From NCBI GenBank assembly GCA_964626075.1, contig CAZVDD010000013.1, positions 31,291 to 95,290 of the forward strand: a stretch of 64,000 nucleotides of DNA, in the 5' to 3' direction. The stretch comes from an uncultured bacterium (GTDB lineage: Bacteria > Hydrothermota > Tepidihabitantia > Tepidihabitantales > Tepidihabitantaceae). Below the pieces are notes generated by a model, which saw nothing but the letters and a program-made list of their open reading frames with translations, did no database searches and had not been told where the DNA came from. Positions 68-59,529 of the stretch are shown here, one piece after another. The first letter of the stretch is position 1. The number at the start of each line of letters is the position of its first letter. A program made the translations under genes and the position numbers.

Positions 68-96
68 TTGACATAAAACAGTTTTCCATCTAATCT
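68..96 (+). promoter_or_regulatory. sigma70-like promoter (TTGACA 68-73, 17 nt spacer, TAATCT 91-96). The -10 ends 7 nt before the ATG at 104, so the transcript would be leaderless.
   Basis: Hexamers and spacing read directly from the sequence. No Shine-Dalgarno between the -10 and the ATG. Confidence 0.45.
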
Positions 97-103
97 ATAT
101 CTG

Positions 104-688
104 ATGAGCCGTATTAAATTTTCCCCCATTTTCCTCGCCGCCCTGTTCAGCGTTGCTGCCCTCTGTGACAATCTGCCCGAACGCCAGTGGGAACGGGGCG
201 CGTTTGAACCGATTGGCGGTAAACCGTACCAACTGCCCAGCGGTATCACCCTCCGGGAAATCAAAGGTCTCGGTGAAGAAACGACCTTTTCTCTCATGCC
301 CCTGCGGGCGGTTCTGCTCAACACCACTTCTCATCGCATCACCGTCAAAATGCCGGCGGGATTGGTATTTTCGCCTTTCGACCACGAGTATCAGTATATG
401 ATGCTTGTCCAGGACTTTTCTTTTTCGGTGCCCGCCGACCAGGACACCGCAATCCTTCTGCCCACCTACGGTTGCAATGAAGATTTAGACGAACCGGACG
501 AAGAGTCCGACTATCAGATTGACATCCAGGTGTGGGAGCGGGAGTTTAACGAACTGTTCACCATCCTCAAGACCAAAAACCTCAACAATATAGATGCCGT
601 AGAACTGGTGCAGGATGCGGTATACGAAATCACCGACGGCAACGGCCTCACCGATTCCACCCGCACGCTTTTGAAACAACTCCCGTGA
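104..688 (+). CDS. Lipoprotein, paralog A (194 aa). N-terminal signal peptide with a lipobox-like AALC. Function unknown.
   Basis: ATG at 104. Hydrophobic N-terminus followed by Cys. Shares an MS(R/K)(I/L)KFS N-terminus and a C-terminal AV(W/Y)xxTDxxGLT motif with the next gene. Stop overlaps the next start (ATGA). Confidence 0.55.
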   Translation: MSRIKFSPIFLAALFSVAALCDNLPERQWERGAFEPIGGKPYQLPSGITLREIKGLGEETTFSLMPLRAVLLNTTSHRITVKMPAGLVFSPFDHEYQYMMLVQDFSFSVPADQDTAILLPTYGCNEDLDEPDEESDYQIDIQVWEREFNELFTILKTKNLNNIDAVELVQDAVYEITDGNGLTDSTRTLLKQLP

Positions 689-1305
689 GTAAACTCAAAT
701 TTTCTTCCCCGCTTCTGCGCCCCGGCGCTACCGCACTGCTGCTTTTCTGCTCTTGCGCACTTCTCTTCTTCTCTGCCTGCGACAACATTTTCTCCCCTTC
801 TGACTTTGAACCCACCGGCACCCCATTTTACCTCAACCCCGGCATCAACACCATCGCCATAACCGGCAACCGCCGCCTGTTCAGCGACCAAGGTCTTTAC
901 ACTCTGGAACTTATCTGCCAGACCACTAATACCAGCCCTCTTCTTGACACCCTTCCCGGCGGCTTACTCTTCACTTCAATTAAAAACTCCACCCAGCATG
1001 TTATCGTTCTTAAAGACCATTTTATCACTGCTCACCCCTCCCGGACAAGCGTCGTCGTCGGCGTGTTCTGCTGTAACCGCTATCGCCAGATCCCGGCAGA
1101 AGACGACACATTTCGCCTCGGACCATTGACTGACAACCCGGACCTCCAGCGGCTGGCGCAACTGGTGAAAAACAAAGACATCTCGCAAAACCTCGGCATG
1201 GTACAACGCGCGGTCTGGATGGTTACCGACTCCACCGGTTTAACCCAGCCTTACATCGACTCAATCAACGCTTTACCCCCGAAATCTGATGGTAACCATC
1301 ATTGA
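685..1305 (+). CDS. Lipoprotein, paralog B (206 aa). Tandem duplicate of the preceding gene.
   Basis: Signal peptide LLFFSAC with lipobox Cys. C-terminal AVWMVTDSTGLTQ motif matches paralog A. Confidence 0.55.
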   Translation: MSKLKFSSPLLRPGATALLLFCSCALLFFSACDNIFSPSDFEPTGTPFYLNPGINTIAITGNRRLFSDQGLYTLELICQTTNTSPLLDTLPGGLLFTSIKNSTQHVIVLKDHFITAHPSRTSVVVGVFCCNRYRQIPAEDDTFRLGPLTDNPDLQRLAQLVKNKDISQNLGMVQRAVWMVTDSTGLTQPYIDSINALPPKSDGNHH

Positions 1306-7156: not shown

Positions 7157-8134
7157 CTATCTCCTGGGTCCTAATGCCCAGACGAGCCACATATCAAGCA
7201 GCGCCCAGGGCTCTGGATGACCGGAAACAATCCGGCGGTTAATTTCGTAAAGGGCATCAATCGCCTTATGCAGGCGCCGGGTTCGAATCGTGCCTTCACC
7301 CCAGCCCATCTCTCTGCCATAATAGTCGGGCCGGCGCAAGAGGTTCAACAACGCATAACCCAGATTCACCACAATCCGTATCGGCTCCTCGCCCTTCTCC
7401 TCAAGCCGCCGCAGCATTTGCAGCGCCTGAGCGGGATTCCCCTCCCGTACCAGCCGAATAAACTCCTGCAACTCAAATACCCGGGTGGAACTGGCATACC
7501 GCTTCACCACATCCTCGTTAACCGTTTCGCCCTGTCCCAGAACCGTTGCTAACTTCTCCATCTCCCCTTTAAGAAACCGCAAATCCTGACCACAAACCTC
7601 AACCAGACAGCGCGCCGCCCCATCATCAAACTTTAATCCGTCCGCCGCACCCCAGCTTTTCAACAACCGCACCAGCCCATCACCTTCCGGCGCTCGCAAC
7701 TGCACCACAAACCGTTCCACTCCGGTTTTCTTAAAAACCTCCTTCAACCCCTTCTCGTACTCACAACTTGCCACTATCGTCACCGCCTCGGGCAAACGCG
7801 CAAACACCGCACACACCCTCGCCAGCACCTCCTTGCGCAACTCCTCTAAGTGCTCAATCACCACCAAGCGCCGGGGCGCCGCCACCGGCAACTGACGAAC
7901 CGCCGCCTCAATCGCGCCCCCAACATCACCCCGCACCTCCCGGGCATCAAGCCTTTCAAAATCAAACGCCTCTAAACCTGAAACCAGCAACTCCTCCTTT
8001 AAAAGCCGAACAAACTCCTCAACAAAAAAGGACTCGCTGTCGTAAAATAGATAAAGCGGCTGAAAATTTCCCGCCGCCAACTCGGCAAAAATGTCGCGCG
8101 CCCCACCCTTATGGGCTCTGCTCTTCTCCTGCAT
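7157..8134 (-). CDS. holA: DNA polymerase III delta subunit (325 aa).
   Basis: N-terminal PLYLFYDSESFFVEEF resembles the HolA signature. Located immediately after leuS, as in many bacteria. Confidence 0.6.
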   Translation of the reverse strand: MQEKSRAHKGGARDIFAELAAGNFQPLYLFYDSESFFVEEFVRLLKEELLVSGLEAFDFERLDAREVRGDVGGAIEAAVRQLPVAAPRRLVVIEHLEELRKEVLARVCAVFARLPEAVTIVASCEYEKGLKEVFKKTGVERFVVQLRAPEGDGLVRLLKSWGAADGLKFDDGAARCLVEVCGQDLRFLKGEMEKLATVLGQGETVNEDVVKRYASSTRVFELQEFIRLVREGNPAQALQMLRRLEEKGEEPIRIVVNLGYALLNLLRRPDYYGREMGWGEGTIRTRRLHKAIDALYEINRRIVSGHPEPWALLDMWLVWALGPRR

Positions 8135-8266
8135 ACCGAAAACGATTTTACCTCAAATCCATCTCTGGTCAATCCTCAACCCTTGTCACACTAATCCTTC
8201 CTCACGCTCCTCTCCTCCCTTAAATGCTGAACTAGGGCGCAACGGCAAAAAGGACAATCAGCCCTA

Positions 8267-9034
8267 CTATTCCCCTTTGATGGCATGGGACAAAGGGGAA
8301 GGAACACTCTTCCGTAAGCGGGAAAACTCCTCCTGCAACCGCTGATTGATACGTCTGATTTCCCGCCTCAAATCCTCCGGAGAAGAAGGCGGTTCCGCCG
8401 GCGGCGCAATCGGCTCACCCAGCGCAACCACGATATTACGATTCAGCAAATTCCCGACAACCGAAAAAAATCCCTCCCAGGCTTCATTCAGACCGGCCTT
8501 GGAATTGGGCTCTGGTCCGAGTTTCAACCCCGCAACATACACCGGTAAAACCGGTACCTGCGCCCGCACCGCCAGCCATGCGGTACCGTCGTAAAGATGG
8601 TCAACATCGCCCCGGCGGTTCAACTCGCCCTCCGGATAAACGCCCAACACCGCGCCCTCCCTCAACATCTGGACCCCGCGCCGCAAGGTCGGGATGTTCT
8701 CATTACCCTTGCCAATTGCCACCGGCATCGTATCGCAAAGATTCCTCATCCAGAACCCGACAAACCGCGAATGAAACCACTTTGCCGCCGCCAGAAAGAA
8801 CACCCGCGTCCTCAGCGCCAGTTGAATCACAATTGAGTCTGCACCGGTCAAGTGGTTTGCCGCGACAACAAACCCGCTTTTAATCGGCAGCGCCACCCGT
8901 TCTCTACCAACCACCCGAATCCGGATTAGAAGACCATAAATGGTGAGCAGCACCGACTTTACCAGCGCCCATAACTGGCGGCTGCGGGATGGTTTGACTC
9001 CTGCCCGTGTCTCGAAAATCCTTCCTTTTGACAT
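8267..9034 (-). CDS. plsC: 1-acyl-sn-glycerol-3-phosphate acyltransferase-like (LPLAT family) protein.
   Basis: NHLTGAD (HX4D) acyltransferase motif and VYPEGE (EGTR-like) motif. Confidence 0.7.
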   Translation of the reverse strand: MSKGRIFETRAGVKPSRSRQLWALVKSVLLTIYGLLIRIRVVGRERVALPIKSGFVVAANHLTGADSIVIQLALRTRVFFLAAAKWFHSRFVGFWMRNLCDTMPVAIGKGNENIPTLRRGVQMLREGAVLGVYPEGELNRRGDVDHLYDGTAWLAVRAQVPVLPVYVAGLKLGPEPNSKAGLNEAWEGFFSVVGNLLNRNIVVALGEPIAPPAEPPSSPEDLRREIRRINQRLQEEFSRLRKSVPSPLSHAIKGE

Positions 9035-9314
9035 CTCGCAACTCCTGCATTATTGTAAAATTTCCTCCGACCTGTGTCAATACTCCAGACACCCGCACCT
9101 TTGTTTTCCCTGTTAAGAGAAGAGAAAAACGGGCGGCCGCGCTGGCGTAATAGCTAACTATCGCGCCAATGCTGGCGGTTATCTTTGATTTCTCAAATAC
9201 TTCCAGTAAACTGGGCTGATGCGGCCGGGCACGGCATACTGCGCCCGGATATCCGTTTGACTATTTCGAGCCGTCAAGGTCCGTTAAAAATTACCAGCCA
9301 AAGGAGGCAGCGTG

Positions 9315-18514: not shown

Positions 18515-20615
18515 CTTTCCCCTCTTTTTTCTTGCTCTTTTTCGTTTTTTTAACAAAACGACACTGGGGATACCCGGAACAGGCGATGAATTTCCCAAAC
18601 CGGCTTTGCCGCTCCACCAAAGGCTTACCGCACTTCGGACATGATTCCGCTAGAATTTTAGGCGCCTCTTTAGGTGGACGTTTTATAAAGTCACATTGGG
18701 GATACCCGGAACAGGCGATGAATTTCCCAAACCGGCTCTGCCGCTCCACCAAAGGCTTGCCGCACTTCGGACAGATGTCTGCTAACGGTTTCTCTTCTCC
18801 CTTTTTCACATAGTCACATTCCGGATATTTTGAACAGGATATGAATTTGCCAAACCTGCCCCAGCGTTCAACCAGCACCGCTCCACACTTCGGGCAACTT
18901 TCGTTTAGCTCGCGGGTCAAACCATCTTTAATTTCGGCTGCCTCCGCCTCTGCCCGGTCCAGGTCTTCTTTAAATGGCTGGTAAAAACGCGCCACAACCT
19001 CGCGCCAATTTAATTCCCCCTCTTCAACACCGTCCAGTTCCTTTTCCATCTCGCGAGTGAACCCGATTTCAAATATGTTGGCAAACCGAGGAATTAAAAT
19101 GTCGTTTACAACCGTCCCTAACTCGGTTGGGACCAGTTTTCCCTGTTTCCTCTCAACATACCCACGCTCAACCAGAGTCGGAACGATTGTCGCATAAGTT
19201 GAAGGTCTGCCAATCCCGTTAACTTCTAACCGCTTAATCAAACTTGCTTCAGTGTAACGGGGCGGCGGCTGGGTGAACTTCTGTTCCGGGATAAACTCTT
19301 TCATCTCAACCGGTTCGCCCTTCTGTAATTCGGGCAATGAACTTTCCTTATCCGGTTCGCCGTATATCCGCTCAAAACCCTCAAAAACCCGTCTTACCGC
19401 CTCAGTCCTGAAGGTGTAATCACCCCCTTCAACTAAAACCTCGGTCAAATTGTACAACGCATCCGCCATTTGGCTGGCAACAAACCGGCGGAAAATCAAC
19501 TCGTAAACCTTAAACTCATCAGGGGTTAGATACGGTTTAACCCGCTCTGGGGTCAAATCTAGACGGGTCGGCCTTATCGCTTCATGTGCACCCTGGGTAC
19601 CCTTGCGGTCCGGATAATGCCGCGGCTTATCAGGAAGAAACCGCTCTCCATATGTTTGTGAAATTAAATTACGCACAGCAGTTACCACATCGTCCGCTAC
19701 TCGAAATGAATCGGTGCGGGGATATGTAATTAACCCGACAGTTTCCTCCTTCAAATCTACCCCTTCAAACAGCCTCTGGGCGATACGCATCGTCCGCGCT
19801 GAACCGAACTTAAACAACTGTCCCGTCTCCTTTAAAAGTGTCGCAGTCACAAAAGGCGGTAGTGGTCTCTTATGCCGTTCCCGCTGCTTAACCACGCTTA
19901 CCGTGAAACGGGTTCCCTGGCACCCCTGCCGCACCCCCTCAACTTCGGACCGGTCCTTCAACCGGAAAGTCTGATTCCTGATTTTTATCAGCTGACACTC
20001 AAAACGTTCTCCGCTCGCCCGGGCAAAAATCGCCCGAACAACCCAGAACTCCTCCGGTTTAAAACTTGCAATCTCTCTTTCCCGCTCCACCAGAATCCGA
20101 AGAGCAACGGTTTGCACCCGACCCGCCGACTTCCCTGCTCGCACTGTTCGCCACAGCAAGGGTGAAACAAGATAACCTACAAGCCGATCCAGCACCCGAC
20201 GTGCTCTATGGGCATCAACCTTCCGCAGATCAATTTCGCCCGGTGAATTAAAACCAGCCTCAATACCCCGGGGCGTAATCTCATAAAACAAAACCCGTTT
20301 TATATTCGCCCCATTCTTTATCTCCTGTGCAACCGAATAGGCAATCGCCTCGCCTTCTCGGTCCGGGTCACAACCCAGGTAAACTGTTTTTGCCTGTTTT
20401 GCCGCCGTTTTTAACTCGTTGATGACCGGCGCCTTCCCTCTTATTCTTATATACTCTGGTTCAAATCCATTTTCGATGTCAACCCCGAGTCGGGACTTTG
20501 GCAAATCCGCGATATGTCCCCGGGAGGAAAGAACCTTTACCCTGCCCTTCAGCAATCTGCTGATCGTATGAGCTTTGGTTGGAGACTCGACAATAAGTAA
20601 ATCTTTTTTGCTCAT
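18501..20615 (-). CDS. topA: DNA topoisomerase I (704 aa) with three C-terminal C4 zinc ribbons and a lysine-rich tail.
   Basis: TOPRIM N-terminus LLIVESPTKAHTI. Three CPKCG...C..YP.C repeats. Tail KKTKKSKKKEGKDEMD. Confidence 0.93.
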   Translation of the reverse strand: MSKKDLLIVESPTKAHTISRLLKGRVKVLSSRGHIADLPKSRLGVDIENGFEPEYIRIRGKAPVINELKTAAKQAKTVYLGCDPDREGEAIAYSVAQEIKNGANIKRVLFYEITPRGIEAGFNSPGEIDLRKVDAHRARRVLDRLVGYLVSPLLWRTVRAGKSAGRVQTVALRILVEREREIASFKPEEFWVVRAIFARASGERFECQLIKIRNQTFRLKDRSEVEGVRQGCQGTRFTVSVVKQRERHKRPLPPFVTATLLKETGQLFKFGSARTMRIAQRLFEGVDLKEETVGLITYPRTDSFRVADDVVTAVRNLISQTYGERFLPDKPRHYPDRKGTQGAHEAIRPTRLDLTPERVKPYLTPDEFKVYELIFRRFVASQMADALYNLTEVLVEGGDYTFRTEAVRRVFEGFERIYGEPDKESSLPELQKGEPVEMKEFIPEQKFTQPPPRYTEASLIKRLEVNGIGRPSTYATIVPTLVERGYVERKQGKLVPTELGTVVNDILIPRFANIFEIGFTREMEKELDGVEEGELNWREVVARFYQPFKEDLDRAEAEAAEIKDGLTRELNESCPKCGAVLVERWGRFGKFISCSKYPECDYVKKGEEKPLADICPKCGKPLVERQSRFGKFIACSGYPQCDFIKRPPKEAPKILAESCPKCGKPLVERQSRFGKFIACSGYPQCRFVKKTKKSKKKEGKDEMD
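18561..18772 (-). repeat. Near-identical tandem direct repeat inside topA (two ~80 nt copies, period 132 nt, 3 mismatches), encoding zinc-ribbon repeats 2 and 3.
   Basis: Copies at 18561-18640 and 18693-18772 compared directly. The encoded peptides CPKCGKPLVERQSRFGKFIACSGYPQC are identical. Confidence 0.85.
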
Positions 20616-20649
20616 TGGGCGTGTAGAATAACCTATTTCGATTTAAAAG

Positions 20650-23499: not shown

Positions 23500-23541
23500 C
23501 GTCCTATTTTAACTCACTTAAACTGAATTTCAAATCTGCCC

Positions 23542-35053: not shown

Positions 35054-35059
35054 CAACTG

Positions 35060-37034: not shown

Positions 37035-39292
37035 CCTTCCTCCGTTGTCTGCGCTGTCCGCATCGTCAAGAGGGCGCCGATAAACGACAGTGTTGCCTCT
37101 GCCCCTTCATTGCCATTCACCCCGTCGGGATGCAGCCCATCATGGCAGCCACCGGTCGTGTAGTCGTAAATCGGTAAACCGAGGTCGTTGCGTCCCAAAT
37201 ACCACTCAAACGCCCGGCGCATCTCCTCGCGCCACTTGGGCTCCCGGGTGCTCAAAAATGCTTGATAGCACGCCTCCACTGTGCACTCTGCCTCAATCGG
37301 CTGCTGGTCAAACCGCAGCCGCGCTGTTCCCCGCCGCCATCCCGTATGTGCGACCGGTACAAAGTGCCCCTGCTCCGCAGTCTGCACCGCTATCAACCAT
37401 CTTAAAGAATCCAATCCGGCATCAACCATCTCTCTTTTTCCCAGTTCCCGGCCGGCAACAATCAGCGCCTCGCTCAATCGGGCGTTCGCATAGGCAAGGA
37501 CCGGTTCAAACCAGCGCCAATCTTCAGTAGCGTTGCGCCGGTAGAGGTCGAGCAGTCTTTCCGCCAGAACCTCGCGAAATCGCCGGGCATTACTGTCGCC
37601 CGGAAAACGCCGGCTATAAGCACATAACCCCAGCAAGGTGTAAGCCCAGGCGCGCGGGCTGGTAAAAAGTTCCACCGCGGGCAAACCCGAGGCAAACAAA
37701 TTCATCGCCAGCGCCACCACCCCGTCCTCACTTGCCGAACTTACCGCATAACCCAGCGCCCATAGCGCCCGACCCTGACTGTCTTCCGAACCCGCCTCCT
37801 CAGTCCAGCGCCGTTCATAACTCAAAAAATTCCGAAACCGGCTGTTGTCCCGGTTGAAGGCAAAATCGAGAAACGCCAGATAGCGCCGGACCAGCCGATT
37901 GAGAAAAGGCTTATCCGCCGCCACCTCCTGTGCCCTGAGTACCATCAAAAGCGCCCGGGCGTTGTCGTCCGTTGTATAACCTTCAGCAAGATTGGGCACG
38001 GTGCGCCGGGCATGCTGCAGGATTCCGGTGTCATCGGTCAAGGTCAAAAGATGATTCAAGTTCAACTCCGGCAGGTCGATGTCTAACGGGTCAGCACTGC
38101 CCATCACCGGTGCCACCGCAAGCGGCGCCCGCATCCGCTCCTCGGCGGCACGCTGAAACGAGTTCAAATAGACGCGGGCAACCTCCTTCCAAACCATCAT
38201 TCTTCCAAAGGCGTAGGCACGCTTGCGCATCGAATGGCGCTCGGTTTCATTTTCAAACAATCCGATAATTGTTTCCGCCAGCGCCTTTGAATCGCGAAAC
38301 GGCACCAGTCTTCCCCTGCCTTCCGCCAGCATCTCCTCCGCATACCAGTAAGGGGTTGACACCACCGCCTTACCAACCCCCATTGAATAGGCAAGCGTTC
38401 CGGAAACAATCTGCGCCGGATTGAGATAAGGTGTCACATAGATGTCGGCCGCGCCGAGAAACTGGCACAACTCCTCCAGCGTGACAAACTGATTGTAAAA
38501 TATTAAATTCCGGTCTACCCCTTGCTCGCGTGCCCGTCTTTGCAGGCGCAGCCGGTACTCCTCACCCTGTTCCCGCTTCACATGGGGGTGGGTGACACCG
38601 AGCACGATGTAAACCACATCAGGAAACCGGGCGGCAATCGCCGGCAGGGCGTCAATCATATATTCGATACCCTTGTTGGGTGACAAAAGCCCAAATGTGA
38701 GAATCACCCTTCGGCCCTCAACCCCGAACAAATCCTTGTAGTAGTTCGGGTCAACAAAAGGCATATCCGGAATCCCGTGATGGATAAAATCAATCTTTTT
38801 CTCCGGCACCTGGTAAATCTCTTTTAAAAACCGCACCGCCCGCTCACTCATCACCACGACCCTTTCCGAAATCCGGCAAATCTCCTCCATAACCGAGCGC
38901 TGCTGTTCATTCGGTTCGGCAAGAACCGTATGCAATGTCGTCACAATCGGCATCCGCAACCGGCGCAGCGTTACCAGGATATGCCCGCCCGCGGGCCCGC
39001 CAAATATCCCGAACTCATGCTGAAGACAGGTCAAGTCAACCCGGGTCATATTGAGAAACTCTGCCAGTTGCCGGTAATAATCCTGATTGTTCTGGGCGAC
39101 CTCGAACTTCACCTCCTCAGGATAAGGGTAACCATCCGGCGTATCGTTCAACGCCACAACCAGCCCGTTCAACTCCGGCGCTTCCTGAGTAACCGAATGG
39201 TAAAGGTCTGAGGTAAAGGTGGCAATCCCGCACTTCCGCGGCAGATAAGTTCCAATAAACGCTATCTTCTTAAATAGATACGGACCACGCAT
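37031..39292 (-). CDS. Bifunctional-type protein (753 aa): an N-terminal GT4 glycosyltransferase (~400 aa) fused to a C-terminal ~350 aa (alpha/alpha)6-toroid-like (six-hairpin glycosidase-like) domain.
   Basis: N-terminal half has GT4 features (LSPNKG, GT-B fold). C-terminal half shows repeated aromatic-rich helix pairs (DDNARALLMVL, ALWALGYAV, AWAYTLLGL, VLAYANARL) typical of six-hairpin folds. Shine-Dalgarno GAGGTGA upstream of the ATG at 39292. Confidence 0.6.
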   Translation of the reverse strand: MRGPYLFKKIAFIGTYLPRKCGIATFTSDLYHSVTQEAPELNGLVVALNDTPDGYPYPEEVKFEVAQNNQDYYRQLAEFLNMTRVDLTCLQHEFGIFGGPAGGHILVTLRRLRMPIVTTLHTVLAEPNEQQRSVMEEICRISERVVVMSERAVRFLKEIYQVPEKKIDFIHHGIPDMPFVDPNYYKDLFGVEGRRVILTFGLLSPNKGIEYMIDALPAIAARFPDVVYIVLGVTHPHVKREQGEEYRLRLQRRAREQGVDRNLIFYNQFVTLEELCQFLGAADIYVTPYLNPAQIVSGTLAYSMGVGKAVVSTPYWYAEEMLAEGRGRLVPFRDSKALAETIIGLFENETERHSMRKRAYAFGRMMVWKEVARVYLNSFQRAAEERMRAPLAVAPVMGSADPLDIDLPELNLNHLLTLTDDTGILQHARRTVPNLAEGYTTDDNARALLMVLRAQEVAADKPFLNRLVRRYLAFLDFAFNRDNSRFRNFLSYERRWTEEAGSEDSQGRALWALGYAVSSASEDGVVALAMNLFASGLPAVELFTSPRAWAYTLLGLCAYSRRFPGDSNARRFREVLAERLLDLYRRNATEDWRWFEPVLAYANARLSEALIVAGRELGKREMVDAGLDSLRWLIAVQTAEQGHFVPVAHTGWRRGTARLRFDQQPIEAECTVEACYQAFLSTREPKWREEMRRAFEWYLGRNDLGLPIYDYTTGGCHDGLHPDGVNGNEGAEATLSFIGALLTMRTAQTTEEG

Positions 39293-39335
39293 AACCGTTC
39301 ACCTCAAACCCTTTTTTATCTCTCATTTAATATCC

Positions 39336-39364
39336 ATTTTAGTCCCACCGTTAAGGAATGTCAA
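39336..39364 (-). promoter_or_regulatory. Promoter of the GT4-fusion/GH130 operon (minus strand: TTGACA, 17 nt, TAAAAT). Leader ~37 nt with a Shine-Dalgarno.
   Basis: Read on the reverse complement. Same TAAAAT -10 as two other promoters in the window. Confidence 0.5.
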
Positions 39365-40326: not shown

Positions 40327-41247
40327 TTAACCCTCCTGTTCCTTGAGCAACCGCTCAACCTCTTCCCTTCGGGGCATAGACGGTTCTGCCCCGAGTACCG
40401 TGCAGGCGACTGCACCGCACGCATTGGCAAACCGCACCGCCTCATCCAGACTCCGACCCTCGGCGATACTTACCACCAGACCGGCGCGAAAGGCGTCACC
40501 GGCACCGGTCGAATCTATCGCCTTAACCTTAAACGGTGGAAACCGCCTTTTGCCATTTTCGTCAAACACCAGCGCGCCATCTGCGCCCACCGAAATAATT
40601 ACCGCCCGGCGTCCGGATTTAAGTTCGGCTTTTGCCCAGTCATCAATCGCCATCCCGCCTGCCAGTTCTGCCGCCTCAATCTCGTTCGGAACGATGTAAT
40701 CAATTGGCTGGCTGATGGGCAGTTCAATCTTGTGAAACGGTGCCGGGTCAAGAAACACCAGACACCCGGCATTGCGGGCAATGGTCGCCGCCTGAAACGA
40801 AACCCGGTGCGGAATCTCAAACTGCAGCATCAGGGCATCCGCCGCCTCAATTTCCGGCTTTACCATCGCTATCTGTTCCTCACCCAGGCGGAGATTGGCA
40901 CCGGCAACACCGATAATCGCATTCTGCCCGGCACTGTCAATCATCGGGCAGGCAACACCCGTTGGCACTTCGGGGTCAACAGCGACGAAATCGGTCCTCA
41001 TCCCTTCCTCTTTCATCTTCTTCAAAAACAACTCGCCGAAGTAGTCCATTCCCACCTTGCCCACCATCACAACATCGGCCCCCAGCCGATGCGCCGCAAC
41101 CGCCTGATTAAAACCCTTGCCGCCTAAAAAAAGTCCAAACCCATCACCGGCCATTGACTCGCCTGGTCGGGGCAACCGCTTGACCCGAAACACCATATCG
41201 GTCATAAAAGAACCAACAACGCAGATTTTAACCCGCTTATTTTTCAT
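40327..41247 (-). CDS. rbsK: Ribokinase-like PfkB-family sugar kinase (306 aa).
   Basis: N-terminal GSFMTDMVFRV..PGES and C-terminal DSTGAGDAFRAGL...ANACGA.CTV.GA.PS motifs, as in RbsK. Confidence 0.75.
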   Translation of the reverse strand: MKNKRVKICVVGSFMTDMVFRVKRLPRPGESMAGDGFGLFLGGKGFNQAVAAHRLGADVVMVGKVGMDYFGELFLKKMKEEGMRTDFVAVDPEVPTGVACPMIDSAGQNAIIGVAGANLRLGEEQIAMVKPEIEAADALMLQFEIPHRVSFQAATIARNAGCLVFLDPAPFHKIELPISQPIDYIVPNEIEAAELAGGMAIDDWAKAELKSGRRAVIISVGADGALVFDENGKRRFPPFKVKAIDSTGAGDAFRAGLVVSIAEGRSLDEAVRFANACGAVACTVLGAEPSMPRREEVERLLKEQEG

Positions 41248-41298
41248 AATGTTAAGTTTATCGCCGCAATACGCCCCCTGTCAAACCAGACGAAAAAA

Positions 41299-41326
41299 TT
41301 GACCACCCGAAAATTGTCCTTATTGT
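41299..41326 (+). promoter_or_regulatory. Leaderless-type promoter (TTGACC, 16 nt, TATTGT, 6 nt, ATG at 41333).
   Basis: Read directly. Confidence 0.35.
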
Positions 41327-41332
41327 TAAACT

Positions 41333-41854
41333 ATGCTGCTAAATTTCCACGGCAAACAGCCGCAAATTGCCCCGGATGTTTTTGTTGCGCCCAATGCGGT
41401 CATCGTTGGCGACTGCGAAATTAAATCCGGGGCAACAATCTGGTTCGGTGTGCTGATTCGGGCTGATGTCAACCGTATCGTCATCGGTTCAATCACCAAC
41501 ATCCAGGATTTATCCGTCATCCACTGTGACGAAGCCGAACCACCGGTTGTACTCGGTACTCGGGTAACCGTGGGCCACCGGGCGATTGTGCACGGTTGCA
41601 CGATAGAAGACGAGGCGATGATTGGCATGGGTGCGGTCATTCTCAACCGGGCAAAAGTTGGCAGGAACTCAATTGTTGCTGCCGGCAGCCTGGTCAAAGA
41701 AGATTTCGTAGTGCCTCCGGGCACTCTTGTTGCCGGGGTGCCGGCGCAAATCAAACGGGAACTGCAACCGGCAGAAATTGAATGGCTCAAAAAGGTGGCA
41801 GAGGGTTATTATCAACTGGGCAAAAAGTATCGTCAGTTAACTCCGACAACCTGA
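41333..41854 (+). CDS. Gamma-class carbonic anhydrase family / hexapeptide-repeat protein (173 aa).
   Basis: Left-handed beta-helix hexapeptide repeats with a YrdA/PaaY-like N-terminus. Confidence 0.8.
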   Translation: MLLNFHGKQPQIAPDVFVAPNAVIVGDCEIKSGATIWFGVLIRADVNRIVIGSITNIQDLSVIHCDEAEPPVVLGTRVTVGHRAIVHGCTIEDEAMIGMGAVILNRAKVGRNSIVAAGSLVKEDFVVPPGTLVAGVPAQIKRELQPAEIEWLKKVAEGYYQLGKKYRQLTPTT

Positions 41855-50137: not shown

Positions 50138-50166
50138 TTGATTTATCAATACCGCCGCGGTAAGCT
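50138..50166 (+). promoter_or_regulatory. Leaderless-type promoter (TTGATT, 17 nt, TAAGCT, 7 nt, ATG at 50174).
   Basis: Read directly. The ORF-track TTG start at 50138 is rejected in favour of the ATG at 50174. Confidence 0.35.
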
Positions 50167-50173
50167 ATCAACG

Positions 50174-50755
50174 ATGCTCTACTCACTCCTTCAGCTAATT
50201 ATCCTGTTCTTTGTCATCTTTGACCCGCTCTTGAGTTTTGTTGTCTTCTTTGGTGCCACCGCGGATATGAGCCCAGAAGAAAAACGGAAAACCGCGCTAC
50301 TTGCGGTCATTGTTGCCTTTTCCATATCAGTCCTCTGTCTCATCTTCGGTGCCGGCATCCTGCGCCTCTTCAACACCAACATCCAGGACTTCAAAATCGC
50401 CGGCGGCATCATCCTCGCCATCCTCGGCATCAAGATGTCTCTTGGTCAGTCCGACTCGGAAAAGGTGATGGGCACCAAACGCTCGGCAAAGGCAATCGCC
50501 TCAATCATCGCCACCCCGCTTTTAACCGGCCCGGCGTCAATCACCGCCATCATCATCAGCGTCCACGACTACGGCAGACTCCTCACCGCCATTGCCGTCC
50601 TTCTTGTCCTCATCATCACCCTGATTCTGTTCCTCCAGGCGCCCCGCATCACCCGCTTCACCGGCGAAACCGCGCTGCAGGTCGTCTCCACCTTGATGGG
50701 CTTAATCACCCTCTCCTGGGGCATAATGTTCATCAAACAGGGTTTCGGCTCCTGA
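50174..50755 (+). CDS. marC: MarC-family (UPF0056) integral membrane protein (~193 aa).
   Basis: N-terminus LLQLIILFFVIFDPL and multi-TM profile of MarC. Confidence 0.65.
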   Translation: MLYSLLQLIILFFVIFDPLLSFVVFFGATADMSPEEKRKTALLAVIVAFSISVLCLIFGAGILRLFNTNIQDFKIAGGIILAILGIKMSLGQSDSEKVMGTKRSAKAIASIIATPLLTGPASITAIIISVHDYGRLLTAIAVLLVLIITLILFLQAPRITRFTGETALQVVSTLMGLITLSWGIMFIKQGFGS

Positions 50756-52378
50756 ACCGACCGCGCTGCCTCTTTCCTTCTTCCCCGCTCGTAAAACAAA
50801 AACCATCACCCAGAACAGCAAACCGATAAGCAGGAAGTGAAACCAGAGCCACAACGGCAACCCCAGAACAACCGGTCGCGGCCGGTGCCAGTTGTAAAAG
50901 TCAAGGCTTAACACAAAGATGACGAAAAATGGCGCCACCTGCCACCATTTTATTCGCCCGCCTGTCACCCATGGCTTTAGCCCGCGCGCCGGTAACAAAA
51001 AACTCCCCCCAATCAAAATACCGCTGACGACAACAACCACCGGCACCACCGCCAGAAAACCAAAACTGGGCAAAAGTTTAAAATGGTAAAGAACCACCAG
51101 CACCTCACCGGTAACAATTGCGGCAAAACCTGCCCAGGGGTTTGCCTTCTGCCAGTAAGCCGCGGCAACCGTCACCGGAAAAAGCACCGCCAGCCCGGTA
51201 AAGGTTTCGGTCGCAATCTGTAAAATTGTGCCCCACGGTCTTAACGCCAGAAAAAGCCCAATTAGGGCAAGGATAACAACCACCAAAAAGTGAAGTGGCT
51301 TTGAACCCTCGGCCGGCTTTCCCAGCAAAACCCTTATGTCCCGAACCAGCATCGACGACAGGGTCAAAAGTTGCGAATCCATCGTTGACATCAACGCCGC
51401 AATCCCGCACACGGTCAAAACCCCACTGAAAAATCCGGGCAGACTCTTATTCACCAACAGGGGCAAAATCTGGTCGGTCTTTGTGCCTTCAATTCCGGGC
51501 AAAACCTTGTGCGCCATCACACCCAGCGCCACCGGAAAGAAAAACAGGACCCCGGTCACAAGCGGATAAAACAGCGCGGCCATTTTCAGCGCCTTCTCAT
51601 CTCGCGCGGCAAAAAACCGCTGAAACAACTGGGGAAACATCGGGTCGCAAACAAACCAGAGAAAAAGATAAGAAAACCAGACCTGCGGTGTAAAAAAATT
51701 ACCTCCGCCCGGTCGGGAAAAAAGTTCTCCCTGATTTGCGAGCAAATCGTTGTTCACCAAAGCAAAACCACCCAGCGCCTTGACCGTCGCCCCGAACAGA
51801 ACCGCCAAACCGGCCAGCATCACCAACCCCTGCAAAAAATCGGTCCAGGCATCACCGCGCATCCCGGCAAGCAGCACATAACCCAGACCCACGAAAACTA
51901 CCAAACCGGCGCCCGCTGCATACGGCAGACCAAAAAGCGCATTCAGCATATAACCGGCACCCATCGGTTGCAGCGCCAGGTACGGCAGGGTAAATACAAC
52001 CATTACCAAAAGATAGGCAAGATGGAGCGCCCGGTTTTCAAACCGCAACCCGATCAACTCCGGCGGCGTAATTGCACCCTGCGCCTTTGCCGCTCGATGA
52101 GCCGGAATCCCGAGCAAAAGAAAGGTCAAAGCCATAAACCCGGTGCCAAACGCCATTATCGGATAATAAGAATAGCCCAACCGGTAACCGGCACCGGCAA
52201 ACCCGAACACCGTAAAAGAGGAAAAGTTTGTTGCGGCGAGCGTCAAGAGCAAAACAAGCGGCCCAAGCCGCCGCCGGGCAAGAAAAAAGTCCTCGTGCCC
52301 TGGTCTTGACCGCAACCGGGCGAAAACCCCGAGGATTAAAAGCAAAACAAAATAGCCCGCAAACAAAACGACCGTCAT
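50702..52378 (-). CDS. Sodium:solute symporter family transporter (558 aa).
   Basis: 13-14 TM helices. SSS-typical N-terminus (..FFLA.R.LGP....). Overlaps the marC 3' end convergently by 54 nt. Confidence 0.75.
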   Translation of the reverse strand: MTVVLFAGYFVLLLILGVFARLRSRPGHEDFFLARRRLGPLVLLLTLAATNFSSFTVFGFAGAGYRLGYSYYPIMAFGTGFMALTFLLLGIPAHRAAKAQGAITPPELIGLRFENRALHLAYLLVMVVFTLPYLALQPMGAGYMLNALFGLPYAAGAGLVVFVGLGYVLLAGMRGDAWTDFLQGLVMLAGLAVLFGATVKALGGFALVNNDLLANQGELFSRPGGGNFFTPQVWFSYLFLWFVCDPMFPQLFQRFFAARDEKALKMAALFYPLVTGVLFFFPVALGVMAHKVLPGIEGTKTDQILPLLVNKSLPGFFSGVLTVCGIAALMSTMDSQLLTLSSMLVRDIRVLLGKPAEGSKPLHFLVVVILALIGLFLALRPWGTILQIATETFTGLAVLFPVTVAAAYWQKANPWAGFAAIVTGEVLVVLYHFKLLPSFGFLAVVPVVVVVSGILIGGSFLLPARGLKPWVTGGRIKWWQVAPFFVIFVLSLDFYNWHRPRPVVLGLPLWLWFHFLLIGLLFWVMVFVLRAGKKERGSAVGSGAETLFDEHYAPGEGD

Positions 52379-52413
52379 CTTGAACTCCTTTCAAAATCCC
52401 TATTAAACAAACA

Positions 52414-52436
52414 AGCCATCCCTGGTTGGGATGGCT
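52414..52436 (-). promoter_or_regulatory. Perfect 9 bp GC-rich hairpin (AGCCAUCCC-UGGUU-GGGAUGGCU) in the 5' leader of the symporter gene, followed on the minus strand by a U-rich tract. Possible attenuator or stabilising stem-loop.
   Basis: Inverted repeat read directly. A minus-strand promoter (TTGACA 52489-84, 16 nt, TACAAT 52467-62) lies just upstream. Shine-Dalgarno AAAGGAG follows. Confidence 0.35.
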
Positions 52437-52612
52437 TGCGCCTGACATAACCAGCAAAACAATTGTAAACCCGATTTGCCACCTGTCAAGCCCGCGCTAA
52501 GAGGCGCCGTTACAGCAATCATCACCATAAAAAGGGGAAAGGTACCAGCACCAATCGAAAATTCCAAGATAGAACAGGTCCGACCTAACTTCTAATACCC
52601 CATCAGCCCATT

Positions 52613-52641
52613 TTGACCGCGGGCAAAATCTCGGCTAAATA
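52613..52641 (+). promoter_or_regulatory. Leaderless-type promoter (TTGACC, 17 nt, TAAATA, 8 nt, ATG at 52650).
   Basis: Read directly. Confidence 0.35.
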
Positions 52642-52649
52642 ATTAACCG

Positions 52650-53432
52650 ATGATAAAAACCCGGGTCAACGGCATCAACCTTTGGCTCTTCCCCAACCTT
52701 GCCGGTTACAAAACGATTACCCACTTTGTCACCACCCGGCAGGGCGGGGTAAGTCCGAAACCCTTTGACACCCTCAACCTCGCCTTCCACACCCAAGACC
52801 ATTTCAACAATGTCCTGCGCAACCGTCTCATCCTTGCCCGTGCCCTGAAAATCGACCCGGATGCACTCATCAACGGCGAACAGGTCCACGGTGCCCAGAT
52901 TGCCATTGTCCAGCACAAAAACACGCCCCTACCCGACACCGACGGTCTCATCACCAATAAACCCGGCATCTGCCTTTTAGTCCTTGTTGCCGACTGTGTC
53001 CCGCTTATCTTCTATCACCCCCAAAAACAGGTGGTCGGTGTTGCCCATGCCGGCTGGAAAGGAACCGTCGCCCGCATCGCACAAAAGACCGTCCAGAAAC
53101 TGCAACAAAAATTCGCCTGTGAACCAGAACAACTACTTGTCGGCATCGGTCCGGCAATCGGCCCCTGCTGCTACCAGGTCCAGGACGATGTTGTCCAGAT
53201 TGTCAAAAAGACCCAGCCCCAAAGCGAAAAACTCCTTATCCGGCGCGTGGGCAACTGGTACCTTGACATTATCAAGGCGAACGAAGCCCAGCTACTCGAC
53301 TCCGGGGTCAGAAAAGAAAACATCCAGACCGCCAACCTCTGCACCCGCTGCCACAGCAAAACCTTCTACTCTGCCCGCGACCGCAAAGGACCAACGGGCC
53401 GATTCGGCGCCGGAATTATGCTCAACCCCTGA
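52650..53432 (+). CDS. pgeF: Peptidoglycan editing factor / purine nucleoside phosphorylase YfiH (DUF152, 260 aa).
   Basis: ADCVPL, HAGWKG and CTRCHS..FYSARD motifs of the YfiH/PgeF family. Confidence 0.8.
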   Translation: MIKTRVNGINLWLFPNLAGYKTITHFVTTRQGGVSPKPFDTLNLAFHTQDHFNNVLRNRLILARALKIDPDALINGEQVHGAQIAIVQHKNTPLPDTDGLITNKPGICLLVLVADCVPLIFYHPQKQVVGVAHAGWKGTVARIAQKTVQKLQQKFACEPEQLLVGIGPAIGPCCYQVQDDVVQIVKKTQPQSEKLLIRRVGNWYLDIIKANEAQLLDSGVRKENIQTANLCTRCHSKTFYSARDRKGPTGRFGAGIMLNP

Positions 53433-56414: not shown

Positions 56415-57818
56415 TTAAGCCCCTTCCAGCGCCTGCTTCAGGTCGGCGATGATGTCTTCCGGGTCTTCGCCACCCACCGAGAGCCTAATCAAATCCGCCG
56501 GAATGCACGCCATCTCTCGGCACTCTTCACCCTGAAGAAGGTGGGTGGAGATGGACGGGATGGTTGCCACCGTCTTGATTCTGCCCAAATCGGTTGCCCG
56601 CCAGATTAACTGGAAGCGGTCAAAAACCCGGCGCGTTGCCTGATGGCCACCTTTGAGCCGAAACGCCAAAAGATGGGTGTAACGGTTTATCGGCTTTAAG
56701 TAGCGCGGGTCTTTCTCGGCATCGACCAGATACAGGTATTTTGTGGCAACTTTGTGCCGGGGATGACTCTCCAGCCCGAGGTAACTCACCTCAAGAACCG
56801 CGGGATGCGCGGCGAGAAATTGCGCAACCCGTAGCGCATTCTGACTGAAAAGGTCCACCCGATGGCGCAGGTCGCGCAGGTCGTTTAATGTCATCAGCGC
56901 CTGAAACGGGTGTAAACAGCCGCCCTGGTCGCGCTGCGGATAGCGCTTGAGATAAAGGGCAAAGTCCTGCTTCATCTCTTCGTTGGTGATTGGGGAGACA
57001 ATCGGTTTGCGGGCGATAACCGCACCGGCCATTCCCATTCCCGAGGTACTCATCACCTTGGTCACCGAATGTATCACGATGTCGGCGCCCAGGGTTAAGG
57101 GACGCAGCAGTGCGGGTGAAGCAATCGTAGAATCCACGACCATCGGTATGCCGTGCTCGTGCGCCAGTTCAATCACCGGTTTTAAGTCAAAGAACTGAAG
57201 CCCGGGGTTGGATGGTACCTCAGCGTAAAGGAACCGGGTGTTGCGGTCAATCTTTTTGCGCCACTCGTCAAGGTCTTCCGGGTGCAGAACCCAGCGCACC
57301 TCAATGCCCCGCTCTGCCATCTTGCGGACATTGAACTGTTGGAAGGTGCCACCGTAAATCTGGCACTGGGAAACAAAGTTGGGTTTCTCGTCATTCTGCC
57401 GCACCAAAAGCGCATCGGTAACATTTTCAATCGCCGCCATTCCCGACGAGTAAACACAGCAACCCGCCTCAAGGTCAGCGCCGTAGGTTTCAAGTAAGGC
57501 AAGGGTGTTTTCCAAATAACCCAATGTCGGGTTGTGAATCCGGGTGTAGCACCAGGTTGGAATCTGGTAGGAGAGCGCCGCCTCCAGTTCGTCGGAGTCC
57601 CGATACGCCTGCGCCGAAGAGAGAAACAGCGGTTCGATAATTGCGCCCTGGTTTTTCTCAATCGCCTCTTCTACGGTGTACATACCCCGCACCGCAATCG
57701 TGTCAAACCGCTTCCTTTTCGCCCGCTCCCAGCGTCGCTTTTCTGCCGCCAGTTGCTCTTTTGCTGCGGCGATGTAGCGTTCGACGCCGGTTGCGGGCGC
57801 CGGTTTATTCATATCCAT
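56415..57818 (-). CDS. Divergent Cys/Met-metabolism PLP-dependent enzyme (MetY/MetZ/MetB-like, 467 aa) with a ~40 aa charged N-terminal extension.
   Basis: FDTIAVRG, AMENVT-like region and PLP-lysine region DIVIHSVTKVMSTSG (a degenerate match to the family signature). Confidence 0.55.
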   Translation of the reverse strand: MDMNKPAPATGVERYIAAAKEQLAAEKRRWERAKRKRFDTIAVRGMYTVEEAIEKNQGAIIEPLFLSSAQAYRDSDELEAALSYQIPTWCYTRIHNPTLGYLENTLALLETYGADLEAGCCVYSSGMAAIENVTDALLVRQNDEKPNFVSQCQIYGGTFQQFNVRKMAERGIEVRWVLHPEDLDEWRKKIDRNTRFLYAEVPSNPGLQFFDLKPVIELAHEHGIPMVVDSTIASPALLRPLTLGADIVIHSVTKVMSTSGMGMAGAVIARKPIVSPITNEEMKQDFALYLKRYPQRDQGGCLHPFQALMTLNDLRDLRHRVDLFSQNALRVAQFLAAHPAVLEVSYLGLESHPRHKVATKYLYLVDAEKDPRYLKPINRYTHLLAFRLKGGHQATRRVFDRFQLIWRATDLGRIKTVATIPSISTHLLQGEECREMACIPADLIRLSVGGEDPEDIIADLKQALEGA

Positions 57819-57993
57819 AAGTTCCTCCCTTATATTTTATCAACTAAAAGCATAAGAACCTTAAACCTTATTGTCAAACAAGGAGCGCGCGACCGGTTAA
57901 ATCCCACCTCGCAAAGGGCGAAAAAAGTGCCGCAGTTTGGTTTTGGCTTTCCGGGTTTTGCTCTATCCGGCAAGAAGTTGTGCCTGTCCAAGG

Positions 57994-58022
57994 TTGACCG
58001 TTTATGGATTTTCCGGTATTAT
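57994..58022 (+). promoter_or_regulatory. Leaderless-type promoter (TTGACC, 17 nt, TATTAT, 7 nt, ATG at 58030).
   Basis: Read directly. Supports the 58030 start rather than the ORF-track 57937. Confidence 0.5.
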
Positions 58023-58029
58023 AATTAAA

Positions 58030-59529
58030 ATGCGGTCTCTATTGAGGCTGAAAACGATTGGCGCCGGGCTTTTCGCGCTCCTCACCTTATCTGTCGCCGG
58101 GGTGAGAACTACAACCGACACCCTGCCACCACCGATTATCAACCGCCACTCTTTTGAACTTCTGCTCAACAGCCGGTACTCGGTGCATAGCGGTTTTGAA
58201 GACAGCCTTCCTGAACAAATCCTTGCCAATGTGCTCTGGGCAATGGCACGCGTGCCCTGCTCGGGCTCTTATCGGGAGTTCTATGTTGCCACCCGAGAAA
58301 ATGTGTATCGCTATCAGCCGGCAACACGCTCTTTGACCGTGCACCTTGCCGGTGACCATCGCTACTACTCCGGCTCGGCTTTTGAGATTGGCATCGCCAC
58401 ACCCCGGCACGAAGACGCCGGCATGGCGATTCAGGCGGGATTGATTGCCGCCACCGCTTTCCGGGATGAAACCGGCGGCAACGTTGTCTGCTGCCCAATG
58501 AAATGGGCGGCGGATTACGCCAACAGCAACTGGCACCCAGACCACCCGATAATGCTGGTCAATCTGTTTGGCAACGCACCGGCAAGGCATCTGGACTCAA
58601 CCCGGGCGGCACTCTCTTCTGACTCCAGTTTGCCCGCCCCCATTACCAAAGGGACCGACACCTTTGAACTGGCACTGATGGAGTTAACCCAGGATTCGCT
58701 CTTTTCGTCCGGTAACCTTTCGATCGAAACCGTTTCCCAGTTACTCTGGGCAGGTTATGGTGTTACCCCGCACACCACATCCAACAACCGTCAGGGTTTA
58801 ACCGTACCCAGTGCGGTCGCCGGCTACTTCCTAACCGGGAAAATTTACCTCGTCCGGGAAGAAGGTATTGAACGGTATCACAACCGGCTACCGCCGGGTA
58901 CCAACCTTACTACGCGCGACCATCGGCTGGAACGGGTTTTGAGCGGCGACCGCCGTGCCGATTTGCGACAAGCGGTAAGCCGGATCCCTTCAACCGCTCC
59001 TGCCTACATCGTTGTCTGTGTTGACGACACCTCCTCTTATCGGACAATGGCAGAGGTGGGGTTTGTTGCCTTCAACCTTTTGATGCAGGCACATATCCTC
59101 GGCCTCTCCGCTTTCCTAACAATGCCCCTGACCCCAAGCGAAAGAAGCGCCATTCAGAACGCCCTGCTTTTGCCCTCAAACCATTATCCCGCACTGGTGT
59201 TTTCGGTTGGTGGCACCGCGGTTGGCATCCGGGAACGCCGCGCCCGAACCGGAACCGTTCAAATTGTCCGTGCCCAGCCTGCGGTGCGGCATGGTTATCT
59301 GCGTATCGAATATCTCCTGCATCAATCCGGTATGGTGCGCGCCGAGGTTTTTGACCTCGTTGGCAGACCGGTACGCACCCTGTTTGAAGAGCGCCAGACC
59401 CCGGGTTACCATTCAATCGTGTGGGATGGCACCGATGAAAACGGTCGTGTCGTACGCCGCGGCACCTATCTTATCGCCATCTCAGCGAACGGTTTCGTGG
59501 CCCAACACAAGGTCAACTGGGCGAAGTAA
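58030..59529 (+). CDS. Secreted protein with two tandem SagB-type nitroreductase-like domains and a T9SS-type C-terminal sorting domain (499 aa).
   Basis: Signal peptide MRSLLRLKTIGAGLFALLTLSVAG. Two repeats of the SagB-like pattern (NRHSFE..LWAMARVP..FYVATRENVYRYQP..L / LWAGYGVT..R..PSA..YFLTGKIYLV..YHNRLP). The C-terminus VFDLVGRPV..TPGYHSIVWDGTDENGRVV..GTYLI..HKV is Por_Secre_tail-like. Confidence 0.6.
   Translation: MRSLLRLKTIGAGLFALLTLSVAGVRTTTDTLPPPIINRHSFELLLNSRYSVHSGFEDSLPEQILANVLWAMARVPCSGSYREFYVATRENVYRYQPATRSLTVHLAGDHRYYSGSAFEIGIATPRHEDAGMAIQAGLIAATAFRDETGGNVVCCPMKWAADYANSNWHPDHPIMLVNLFGNAPARHLDSTRAALSSDSSLPAPITKGTDTFELALMELTQDSLFSSGNLSIETVSQLLWAGYGVTPHTTSNNRQGLTVPSAVAGYFLTGKIYLVREEGIERYHNRLPPGTNLTTRDHRLERVLSGDRRADLRQAVSRIPSTAPAYIVVCVDDTSSYRTMAEVGFVAFNLLMQAHILGLSAFLTMPLTPSERSAIQNALLLPSNHYPALVFSVGGTAVGIRERRARTGTVQIVRAQPAVRHGYLRIEYLLHQSGMVRAEVFDLVGRPVRTLFEERQTPGYHSIVWDGTDENGRVVRRGTYLIAISANGFVAQHKVNWAK

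Follow-up and report, generated by a model that had tools for sequence, protein, structure and literature searches.

Consensus promoters abutting ATG start codons suggest leaderless initiation in a WOR-3 bacterium

Many transcription units in a 64,000-nt stretch of DNA from an uncultured candidate division WOR-3 bacterium (contig CAZVDD010000013.1; the whole stretch is called the window in what follows) start with a near-consensus bacterial promoter that is followed within a few nucleotides by an ATG, with no Shine-Dalgarno (SD) sequence. This layout occurs at 15-16 of the approximately 30 transcription-unit heads in the window, slightly weaker matches included. Judging from sequence and its conservation, we consider it probable that such units are leaderless, or nearly so, and are translated without an SD, alongside other genes that are SD-led.

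The proposed mechanism is as follows. The promoters would be genuine primary-sigma (sigma-70-type) promoters of the form TTGACa/c-N16-18-TAwwaT. RNA polymerase would initiate at the first base of the ATG or no more than a few nucleotides before it, so that the mRNAs begin 5'-AUG and lack an SD, and a ribosome carrying initiator tRNA would recognise the 5'-terminal AUG directly. Ordinary SD-dependent initiation would serve the remaining transcription units and many genes inside operons, the two systems working side by side. The arrangement would be a trait of the WOR-3 (Caldifarciminota) lineage and not of this genome alone.

Promoters in the window

Both strands were scanned for TTGAC-N16-18-TAnnnT, with 200 dinucleotide shuffles as control. 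The initial annotation of this DNA had described a recurrent promoter-ATG layout and proposed comparing the motif with shuffled sequence; run on the 64-kb window, that comparison bears it out. There are 22 perfect sites against 3.5 +/- 1.8 expected (maximum of 9 in 200 shuffles), and ten of them have an ATG opening a reading frame of at least 80 codons at 6-10 nt, where 0.33 such cases are expected. In the histogram of promoter-to-ATG distances the bins from 0 to 5 nt are empty, 10 cases fall at 6-10 nt and approximately five are scattered up to 40 nt. Eighteen perfect promoters are intergenic and four intragenic. Among the intergenic ones, 10 abut an ATG, six precede SD-bearing leaders of 17-83 nt and two are orphans. 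The sites agree with the sigma-70 type in their -35 (TTGACA), spacer (17 +/- 1) and -10 (TATAAT with A2 and T6), and the top matches (10-11 of 12) of a separate sigma-70 promoter scan fall on the same sites. A consensus score of at least 8.5 at a distance of 4-12 nt is reached by 15 of 60 gene starts, versus 0.7% of all start-like triplets in the window; in a per-gene table of approximately 60 genes, such a score never occurs together with an SD.

Could AT-rich intergenic DNA merely resemble -35 and -10 hexamers near starts by chance? Some individual matches are noise, since the number of perfect matches inside genes, four, is what the shuffles predict, and a looser 9-of-12 promoter scan rises only about twofold above shuffles. 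Against this stand the approximately 6-fold excess of perfect matches, the approximately 30-fold excess of ATG-headed reading frames at 6-10 nt, the empty bins at 0-5 nt, and the retention of the hexamers in relatives, one of which has a genome of 72% GC, a composition in which AT-rich hexamers would hardly ever arise by chance. The chance explanation is effectively refuted; we give it next to no weight.

Seventeen candidate sites were aligned, of which one (27144) was later removed and 16 were retained. Over the 17, the -35 counts are T16 T17 G16 A16 C15, followed by A or C, and the -10 counts are T14 A17 w w a T16. The two hexamers stand 16-17 nt apart, except at one site (18) and at 27144 (15). 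The distance from the -10 to the ATG is 6 nt at four sites, 7 at five, 8 at five, 9 at one and 10 at two; for the retained sites it spans 6-10 nt with a median of 7, and the start codon is ATG in 16 of 16. The nine genes listed initially do have the claimed layout (spacer of 16-17 nt, 6-10 nt to the ATG, no SD). Their -35 is TTGAC[A/C] as claimed, except TTGCCC at 33858 and TTGATT at 50174, and their -10 is TAnnnT except at 52650 (TAAATA, or AATAAT with a 19-nt spacer). The claim of at least ten such genes was an undercount, to which we add the ATGs at 8134, 20615, 23499, 24288 and 41247 on the minus strand and 34256 and 62545 on the plus strand.

RNA polymerase usually starts approximately 7 nt downstream of the -10, and the canonical -10 ends 6 nt before +1. 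A gap of 6-8 nt between -10 and ATG would therefore place +1 at or beside the A of the ATG. Given these distances and the published range of start sites, approximately 4-10 bp downstream of the -10 hexamer (PMC12641261), transcription is predicted to start at the start codon or no more than 5 nt upstream of it. A related reading keeps the promoters as real and puts the start a few nucleotides upstream, giving leaders of 1-5 nt or somewhat more and an SD-independent route that is not strictly dependent on a 5'-AUG. It draws on the three sites at 9-10 nt (8134, 20615 and 24440), where a canonical start would leave leaders of 2-5 nt, and on orthologues at 10-12 nt (11-12 nt in some relatives), all beyond the canonical 6 nt. 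At 13 of the 16 retained sites, however, the distance is 6-8 nt, the modal spacing from -10 to transcription start, and we regard this reading as unlikely, though not negligible. Studies that map transcription start sites usually count 5' untranslated regions of up to 5 nt as leaderless, so it is mostly a nuance and not a different mechanism.

The extensive leaderless translation read from this DNA initially is thus supported by the sigma-70 promoters, the usual distance from -10 to transcription start (the start sites themselves being placed by inference), exclusivity with the SD, conserved geometry and protein N-termini, of which the last three are taken up below.

Evidence from related genomes

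The host genome was sampled through the window and 19 kb of its flanks, and its relatives through approximately 230 kb. TopA encoded in the window is 88% identical to that of a metagenome-assembled genome (MAG) labelled candidate division WOR-3 and 62-75% identical to those of six further MAGs, four of which are labelled WOR-3; the next-best matches, at approximately 45% identity, are mostly from Gemmatimonadota. The host is a candidate division WOR-3 bacterium, the phylum being named Caldifarciminota in the current NCBI taxonomy. Long contigs in several metagenome assemblies contain the same DNA as the window. Four further WOR-3 loci (L095-L098; GC 50-72%) were obtained through a PrsW search, with PrsW 79-57% identical. 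A metagenome search with PgeF gave two useful relatives only (L085 and L086), on short contigs that are informative for the pgeF promoter alone.

Up to eleven further WOR-3 genomes (50-72% GC) preserve the spacing between promoter and start at orthologues. At topA, all seven relatives have TTGAC(T/A/C)-16/17-TAT(T/C)CT, 8-11 nt and an ATG, with varying spacer and upstream context. The methyltransferase gene has a TTGAC(A/T) promoter 7-12 nt before its ATG in six of six relatives. In six relatives the MJ0043-like gene has TTG(A/C)AA-16-TA(A/G)AAT at 5-6 nt from its ATG or GTG, and in a seventh (L011) another hexamer pair with the same geometry. The pgeF layout is kept in both relatives (protein 77% identical), the GT4 geometry in L095, L096 and L098, and TTGACT-16-[GA]AAAAT of PrsW in L095, L096 and L097. 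Single orthologues add TTGACA-16-TAAAAT-7-GTG for the M23 peptidase (L006) and TTGCCT-16-TAAAAT-6-ATG for the DUF7980 protein (L096). For topA, the methyltransferase, the MJ0043-like gene, GT4 and PrsW, the hexamers persist as the sequences of spacer and discriminator change. In the 72% GC locus L098, a PfkB-family gene (a homologue, orthology not established) has TTGACA-17-CATCCT-8-ATG, and TTGACC-17-TAGTAT-8-GTG and TTGACC-16-TATACT-8-ATG are also found. Under independent gene calls the geometry also recurs in L095-L098 at many transcription-unit heads unrelated to these, such as sucC and genes for an SLBB export protein, a DUF3108 protein, a TPR protein and hypothetical proteins; other transcription-unit heads in these loci carry an SD.

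Pooling 11 WOR-3 loci (231 kb) gave 77 perfect promoters, with 22 ATG-headed reading frames at 5-11 nt versus 14 in the other 34 distance bins. By comparison, 933 kb from other phyla, mostly Gemmatimonadota and a rough negative control whose GC content differs from that of the window, gave 24 promoter matches, none of them at 6-10 nt. The pattern is nonetheless visible at 72% GC in the WOR-3 locus L098.

We lean, by a modest margin, towards leaderless initiation from full-consensus promoters being phylum-wide in WOR-3, at about half of transcription units and over GC contents of 50-72%. If true, WOR-3 would join Actinobacteria and Deinococcus-Thermus as the third major group of bacteria in which leaderless usage is very high, would lie outside Terrabacteria, and SD-biased gene callers would systematically misplace starts in WOR-3 genomes.

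Placement of start codons

Initiation at a 5'-terminal AUG is the translation mode that we infer from the all-ATG starts together with the N-termini of Pfam profiles and homologues. In PfkB (41247) profile position 3 aligns to residue 7; the MarC (50174) alignment begins at residue 5; and the profiles of GT4, PrsW and PgeF begin within approximately 30 residues of the proposed starts. The N-terminus of the DUF7980-like protein (33858) aligns within one residue with its L096 relative. For topA, the methyltransferase and the MJ0043-like gene, public gene calls agree on the ATG next to the promoter.

These data also bear on whether the promoter-adjacent ATGs are true starts at all; initiation might instead lie downstream on leadered mRNAs, the geometry being a by-product of the first in-frame ATG. 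Public callers do disagree on the M23 peptidase (24440; 451, 439 or 430 aa) and on an FAD protein (441 or 437 aa), and in L098 the called PrsW start lies just 2 nt past a -10-like hexamer. This alternative nevertheless seems very improbable: 10 of 18 intergenic perfect promoters have an in-frame ATG at 6-10 nt against 0.33 expected, the position of the ATG is conserved across species, the PfkB and MarC profiles begin within a few residues of the start and the DUF7980 N-termini coincide. Inspection, without a systematic scan, noted no SD downstream of these ATGs. The initial annotation had also held that the layout validates several start-codon reassignments. Only two of these are backed: 50174, through the MarC profile, and 58030, where public calls give 530, 499 and 499 aa and two of the three use ATG 58030 (the other uses TTG 57937). 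At 24440 the public calls diverge, as given above.

In separate assemblies of this genome (L001-L004 and L092-L094, carrying the DNA of window 8.5-30.6 kb and 52.5-64 kb), the callers of various public sources place the start of one and the same gene differently. Besides the M23 peptidase, the FAD protein and the 58030 gene, the disagreements include an HIT protein (165, 156 or 135 aa) and tal (216 or 240 aa).

A separate case is guaA (4109-4184, minus strand), whose conserved N-terminus (LDRVLVLDFGSQY...) lies upstream of the first ATG, GTG or TTG, in frame directly behind the TAG stop of the preceding 138-aa gene. The sole plausible start is the CTG at 4176-4174, with GGGAG 9 nt upstream, and public calls are truncated (486 or 479 aa). 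The gene seems to lack a canonical start codon.

SD-led genes

SD cores of 5-8 nt are found at 4598, 9034, 9315, 17083, 22226, 28615, 39292, 50032, 52378, 59617 and others. The SD-led examples named in the initial annotation are among the genes found to carry one: tal has GGAGG, asnA AAGGAG, yebC AGGAGG, the 9315 reading frame AAGGAGG and the GT4-fusion gene GAGGTGA. Internal operon genes have an SD or overlapping stop and start codons, and the promoter motif is confined to transcription-unit heads.

Six of these genes have a perfect promoter at a greater distance. On the minus strand, the acyltransferase gene (ATG 9034; 9032..9080) has TTGACA-17-TACAAT and a short, 17-nt leader with AGGAG; asnA (ATG 28615; 28613..28707) has TTGACA-17-TATCCT and a 63-nt leader; the GT4-fusion gene (ATG 39292; 39290..39364) has TTGACA-17-TAAAAT and a 43-nt leader; the sodium:solute symporter (SSF) transporter gene (ATG 52378; 52376..52489) has TTGACA-16-TACAAT and an 83-nt leader with a hairpin and AAGGAG; and the gene for a Cys/Met pyridoxal-phosphate (PLP) enzyme (ATG 57818; 57816..57877) has TTGACA-17-TATGCT and a 30-nt leader with GGGAGG. 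On the plus strand, yebC (ATG 59617; 59545..59619) has TTGACA-17-TAGAAT and a 43-nt leader.

In the SSF leader (52378-52489, minus strand) a 12-bp hairpin with a T-rich tail (52439-52411) lies between promoter and SD; the hairpin is terminator-like, and the arrangement looks like an attenuator or other leader control. At 9028-9476 two perfect promoters overlap face-to-face. The minus one (9080-9052) serves the acyltransferase gene at 9034. The plus one (9028-9056) has no gene for approximately 250 nt, until the SD-led 53-aa reading frame at 9315-9476, which suggests a long leader or another RNA at 9060-9300.

Individual leaderless-type sites

On the minus strand, ATG 8134 (325 aa; 8132..8172) has TTGACC-16-TAAAAT-10-ATG, its product giving a weak, below-cut-off Pfam match to the DNA polymerase III delta C-terminal domain. 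The promoter of topA (ATG 20615; 20613..20653) is TTGACT-17-TATTCT-9-ATG and overlaps the 3' end of acpS. The gene for an MJ0043_C-domain protein (ATG 23499; 23497..23533) has TTGAAA-16-TAAAAT-6-ATG, the methyltransferase gene (ATG 24288; 24286..24323) TTGACA-16-TATATT-7-ATG, the GT4 glycosyltransferase gene (ATG 33776; 33774..33813) TTGACC-17-TAAGAT-8-ATG and the PfkB kinase gene (ATG 41247; 41245..41284) TTGACA-18-TAAACT-7-ATG.

On the plus strand, a hypothetical 194-aa protein (ATG 104; 68..106) has TTGACA-17-TAATCT-7-ATG, in a 38-nt gap behind the last gene of an exopolysaccharide (EPS) operon. The gene for the M23 peptidase-like protein (ATG 24440; 24402..24442) has TTGACA-16-TAAAAT-10-ATG, that for the DUF7980-like membrane protein (ATG 33858; 33823..33860) TTGCCC-17-TATAAT-6-ATG, that for PrsW protease (ATG 34256; 34220..34258) TTGACT-16-GAAAAT-8-ATG with a weaker -10, that for a PD40-repeat protein (ATG 35060; 35026..35062) TTGACA-16-TAGTAT-6-ATG and that for a hexapeptide transferase (ATG 41333; 41299..41335) TTGACC-16-TATTGT-6-ATG. 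MarC (ATG 50174; 50138..50176), a weaker case, has TTGATT-17-TAAGCT-7-ATG, and its upstream TTG at 50138 coincides with the start of the -35 hexamer. PgeF/Cu-oxidase_4 (ATG 52650; 52613..52652) has TTGACC-17-TAAATA-8-ATG, the 499-aa secreted FlgD_ig-domain protein (ATG 58030; 57994..58032) TTGACC-17-TATTAT-7-ATG and the 3D-domain protein (ATG 62545; 62508..62547) TTGACA-17-AATTAT-8-ATG, or alternatively -16-TAATTA-9. At two divergent gene pairs, 33776/33858 (81 bp) and 41247/41333 (85 bp), the intergenic region consists of two back-to-back core promoters alone.

The candidate removed from the alignment, 27144 (the FAD protein; ATTACA-15-CATAAT-8-ATG), was rejected for its poor hexamers and lack of conservation in L005 and L095.

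Several observations weigh against the leaderless reading, in addition to the longer spacings given above. Imperfect hexamers are seen at 50174, 52650, 34256 and 62545. The promoters of 104, 20615, 23499 and 34256 occupy short gaps behind a gene of the same orientation and overlap the 3' end of that gene in part, so that leadered read-through transcripts may coexist. Gene calls give GTG or TTG starts to some orthologues, and in Escherichia coli these codons are poor leaderless starts. The 19-kb flanks of the window offer a small sample of only five transcription-unit heads, the left flank (9.9 kb), a single polysaccharide operon, having none. One head is a clean case, TTGTCA-16-TAAAAT-6-ATG at a deacetylase gene starting just past the window end; two are looser (TTGCCT-16-TATAAT-11-ATG and TTGACA-17-CAAACT-9-GTG); nadE is ambiguous, with TATATT 6 nt before the ATG and no -35 at normal spacing; and a C25 peptidase gene is SD-led.

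Other features

Downstream of a strong orphan promoter at 28776-28804 (plus strand), TTGACA-17-TAAAAT with an upstream TG, lie approximately 140 nt that hardly vary in three further WOR-3 species (L005, L095 and L096), always beside pdxA. The region 28776-28960 folds into a long closing stem with an internal hairpin (minimum free energy -60 kcal/mol, one compensatory pair), and has an invariant unpaired CAACCUCCUCAAAAAG stretch and a T-run at its end. An Rfam search of the orphan-promoter region at E <= 1 gave no match. We propose the region as a candidate conserved structured small RNA with a CCUCCU loop that might base-pair with SD sequences.

The window has 53% GC; its plus strand is strongly C-rich and its minus strand carries most of the genes. 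Plus-strand GC skew is negative across 1-64000 (-0.03 to -0.23) and weakest at the plus-strand genes of 58-63 kb, so that it partly tracks gene orientation, coding strands being G-rich. No tRNA or 16S rRNA gene was found in the window, and Rfam at gathering thresholds gave no match across it. At 41897-50032 (minus strand) lies a nine-gene operon with MoxR, VWA/BatA-like and BatD proteins, of the aerotolerance (Bat) type known from Bacteroides. Its first gene, MoxR (50032), is SD-led, and a Bat-type cluster is also present in the 72% GC relative L098.

Comparison with known systems

WOR-3 is often placed near the FCB group, and Bacteroidota promoter hexamers (TTTG / TAnnTTTG) differ from those found here. 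FCB-group genomes belong mostly to group B of GeneMarkS-2, and group C accounts for 90% in Actinobacteria and 97% in Deinococcus-Thermus and is rare elsewhere (PMC6028130). The window shares with group B its many genes without an SD, but the non-SD motif of group B precedes all genes, internal ones included (PMC6028130), at a distance from the start that is too short for a promoter, whereas the motif here is a sigma-70 promoter with a -35, confined to transcription-unit heads, with canonical SD sequences elsewhere. Nor does it resemble the archaeal-type group D, with a TATA box approximately 22-26 nt upstream; here an A/T-rich box stands 6-10 nt before the start codon, together with a bacterial -35.

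As far as sequence can tell, the WOR-3 layout fits group C. Where that group has its -10 localised approximately 6-8 nt upstream of first-in-operon starts, the distance here is 6-10 nt with a median of 7; the SD is absent at leaderless-type genes and present at leadered or internal genes; and the fraction of operons in the window sample exceeds the approximately 25% that marks the group, L095-L098 being similar in this respect.

Actinobacterial leaderless promoters show little -35 conservation, whereas the WOR-3 -35 is almost perfectly TTGAC(A/C) at nearly every site, as in E. coli. The window also differs in its moderate GC, its lineage (WOR-3, not Terrabacteria) and its exclusive use of ATG, where mycobacteria use GTG freely too. 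The likeness lies in the TAnnnT placed 6-8 nt before first-in-operon starts that lack an SD in Mycobacterium, Streptomyces and Corynebacterium, with SD sequences kept at internal or leadered genes and 25%-50% of operons affected (PMC6028130; PMC3898074). In M. tuberculosis, whose leaderless genes have experimental support, the distance is 6-8 nt (PMC6028130).

The '-10 region adjacent to ORFs' of Deinococcus-Thermus is similar, with TANNNT approximately 6-7 bp before the open reading frame at about a third or more of genes; there the signal serves start-codon correction, and the leaderless share is among the highest in bacteria (PMC12340547; PMC4007540; PMC3160421). In D. radiodurans, likewise supported by experiment, the distance is 6-7 bp (PMC12340547), and the signature by which Zheng et al. 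recognise leaderless genes in bacteria is a TAnnnT signal approximately 10-12 bp before the start (PMC3160421). Deinococcus differs in its phylum, its high GC and its commonest -10, TACACT; the -10 in the window is rich in A and T (TAAAAT, TATAAT, TATTAT) and is paired with a consensus -35.

Leaderless mRNAs of the E. coli type (lambda cI, Tn1721 tetR) are transcribed from a sigma-70 promoter whose +1 is the A of the AUG, and they strictly prefer AUG. The WOR-3 sites would share this arrangement, their +1 being placed by spacing. The E. coli-type cases are isolated in an SD-dominated genome, whereas here about half of transcription units are concerned.

A search pairing 'leaderless' with 'WOR-3' found no paper in the searchable literature, and two recent WOR-3 genome and isolation papers make no mention of leaderless mRNAs, SD or promoters. 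Since the promoters come close to the consensus of E. coli, reporters in that species could directly test the transcription side of the prediction, and start sites are mappable now that a WOR-3 isolate exists (PMC12285271). For annotation, a consensus promoter 6-10 nt upstream of an ATG would provide a sequence rule for WOR-3 start codons. The mechanism is known from Actinobacteria and Deinococcus; within the searchable literature, what is new is the WOR-3 lineage, the near-perfect -35 and the moderate GC. WOR-3 would be a further lineage relying heavily on leaderless mRNAs, which bears on whether leaderless initiation is ancestral or was acquired repeatedly.

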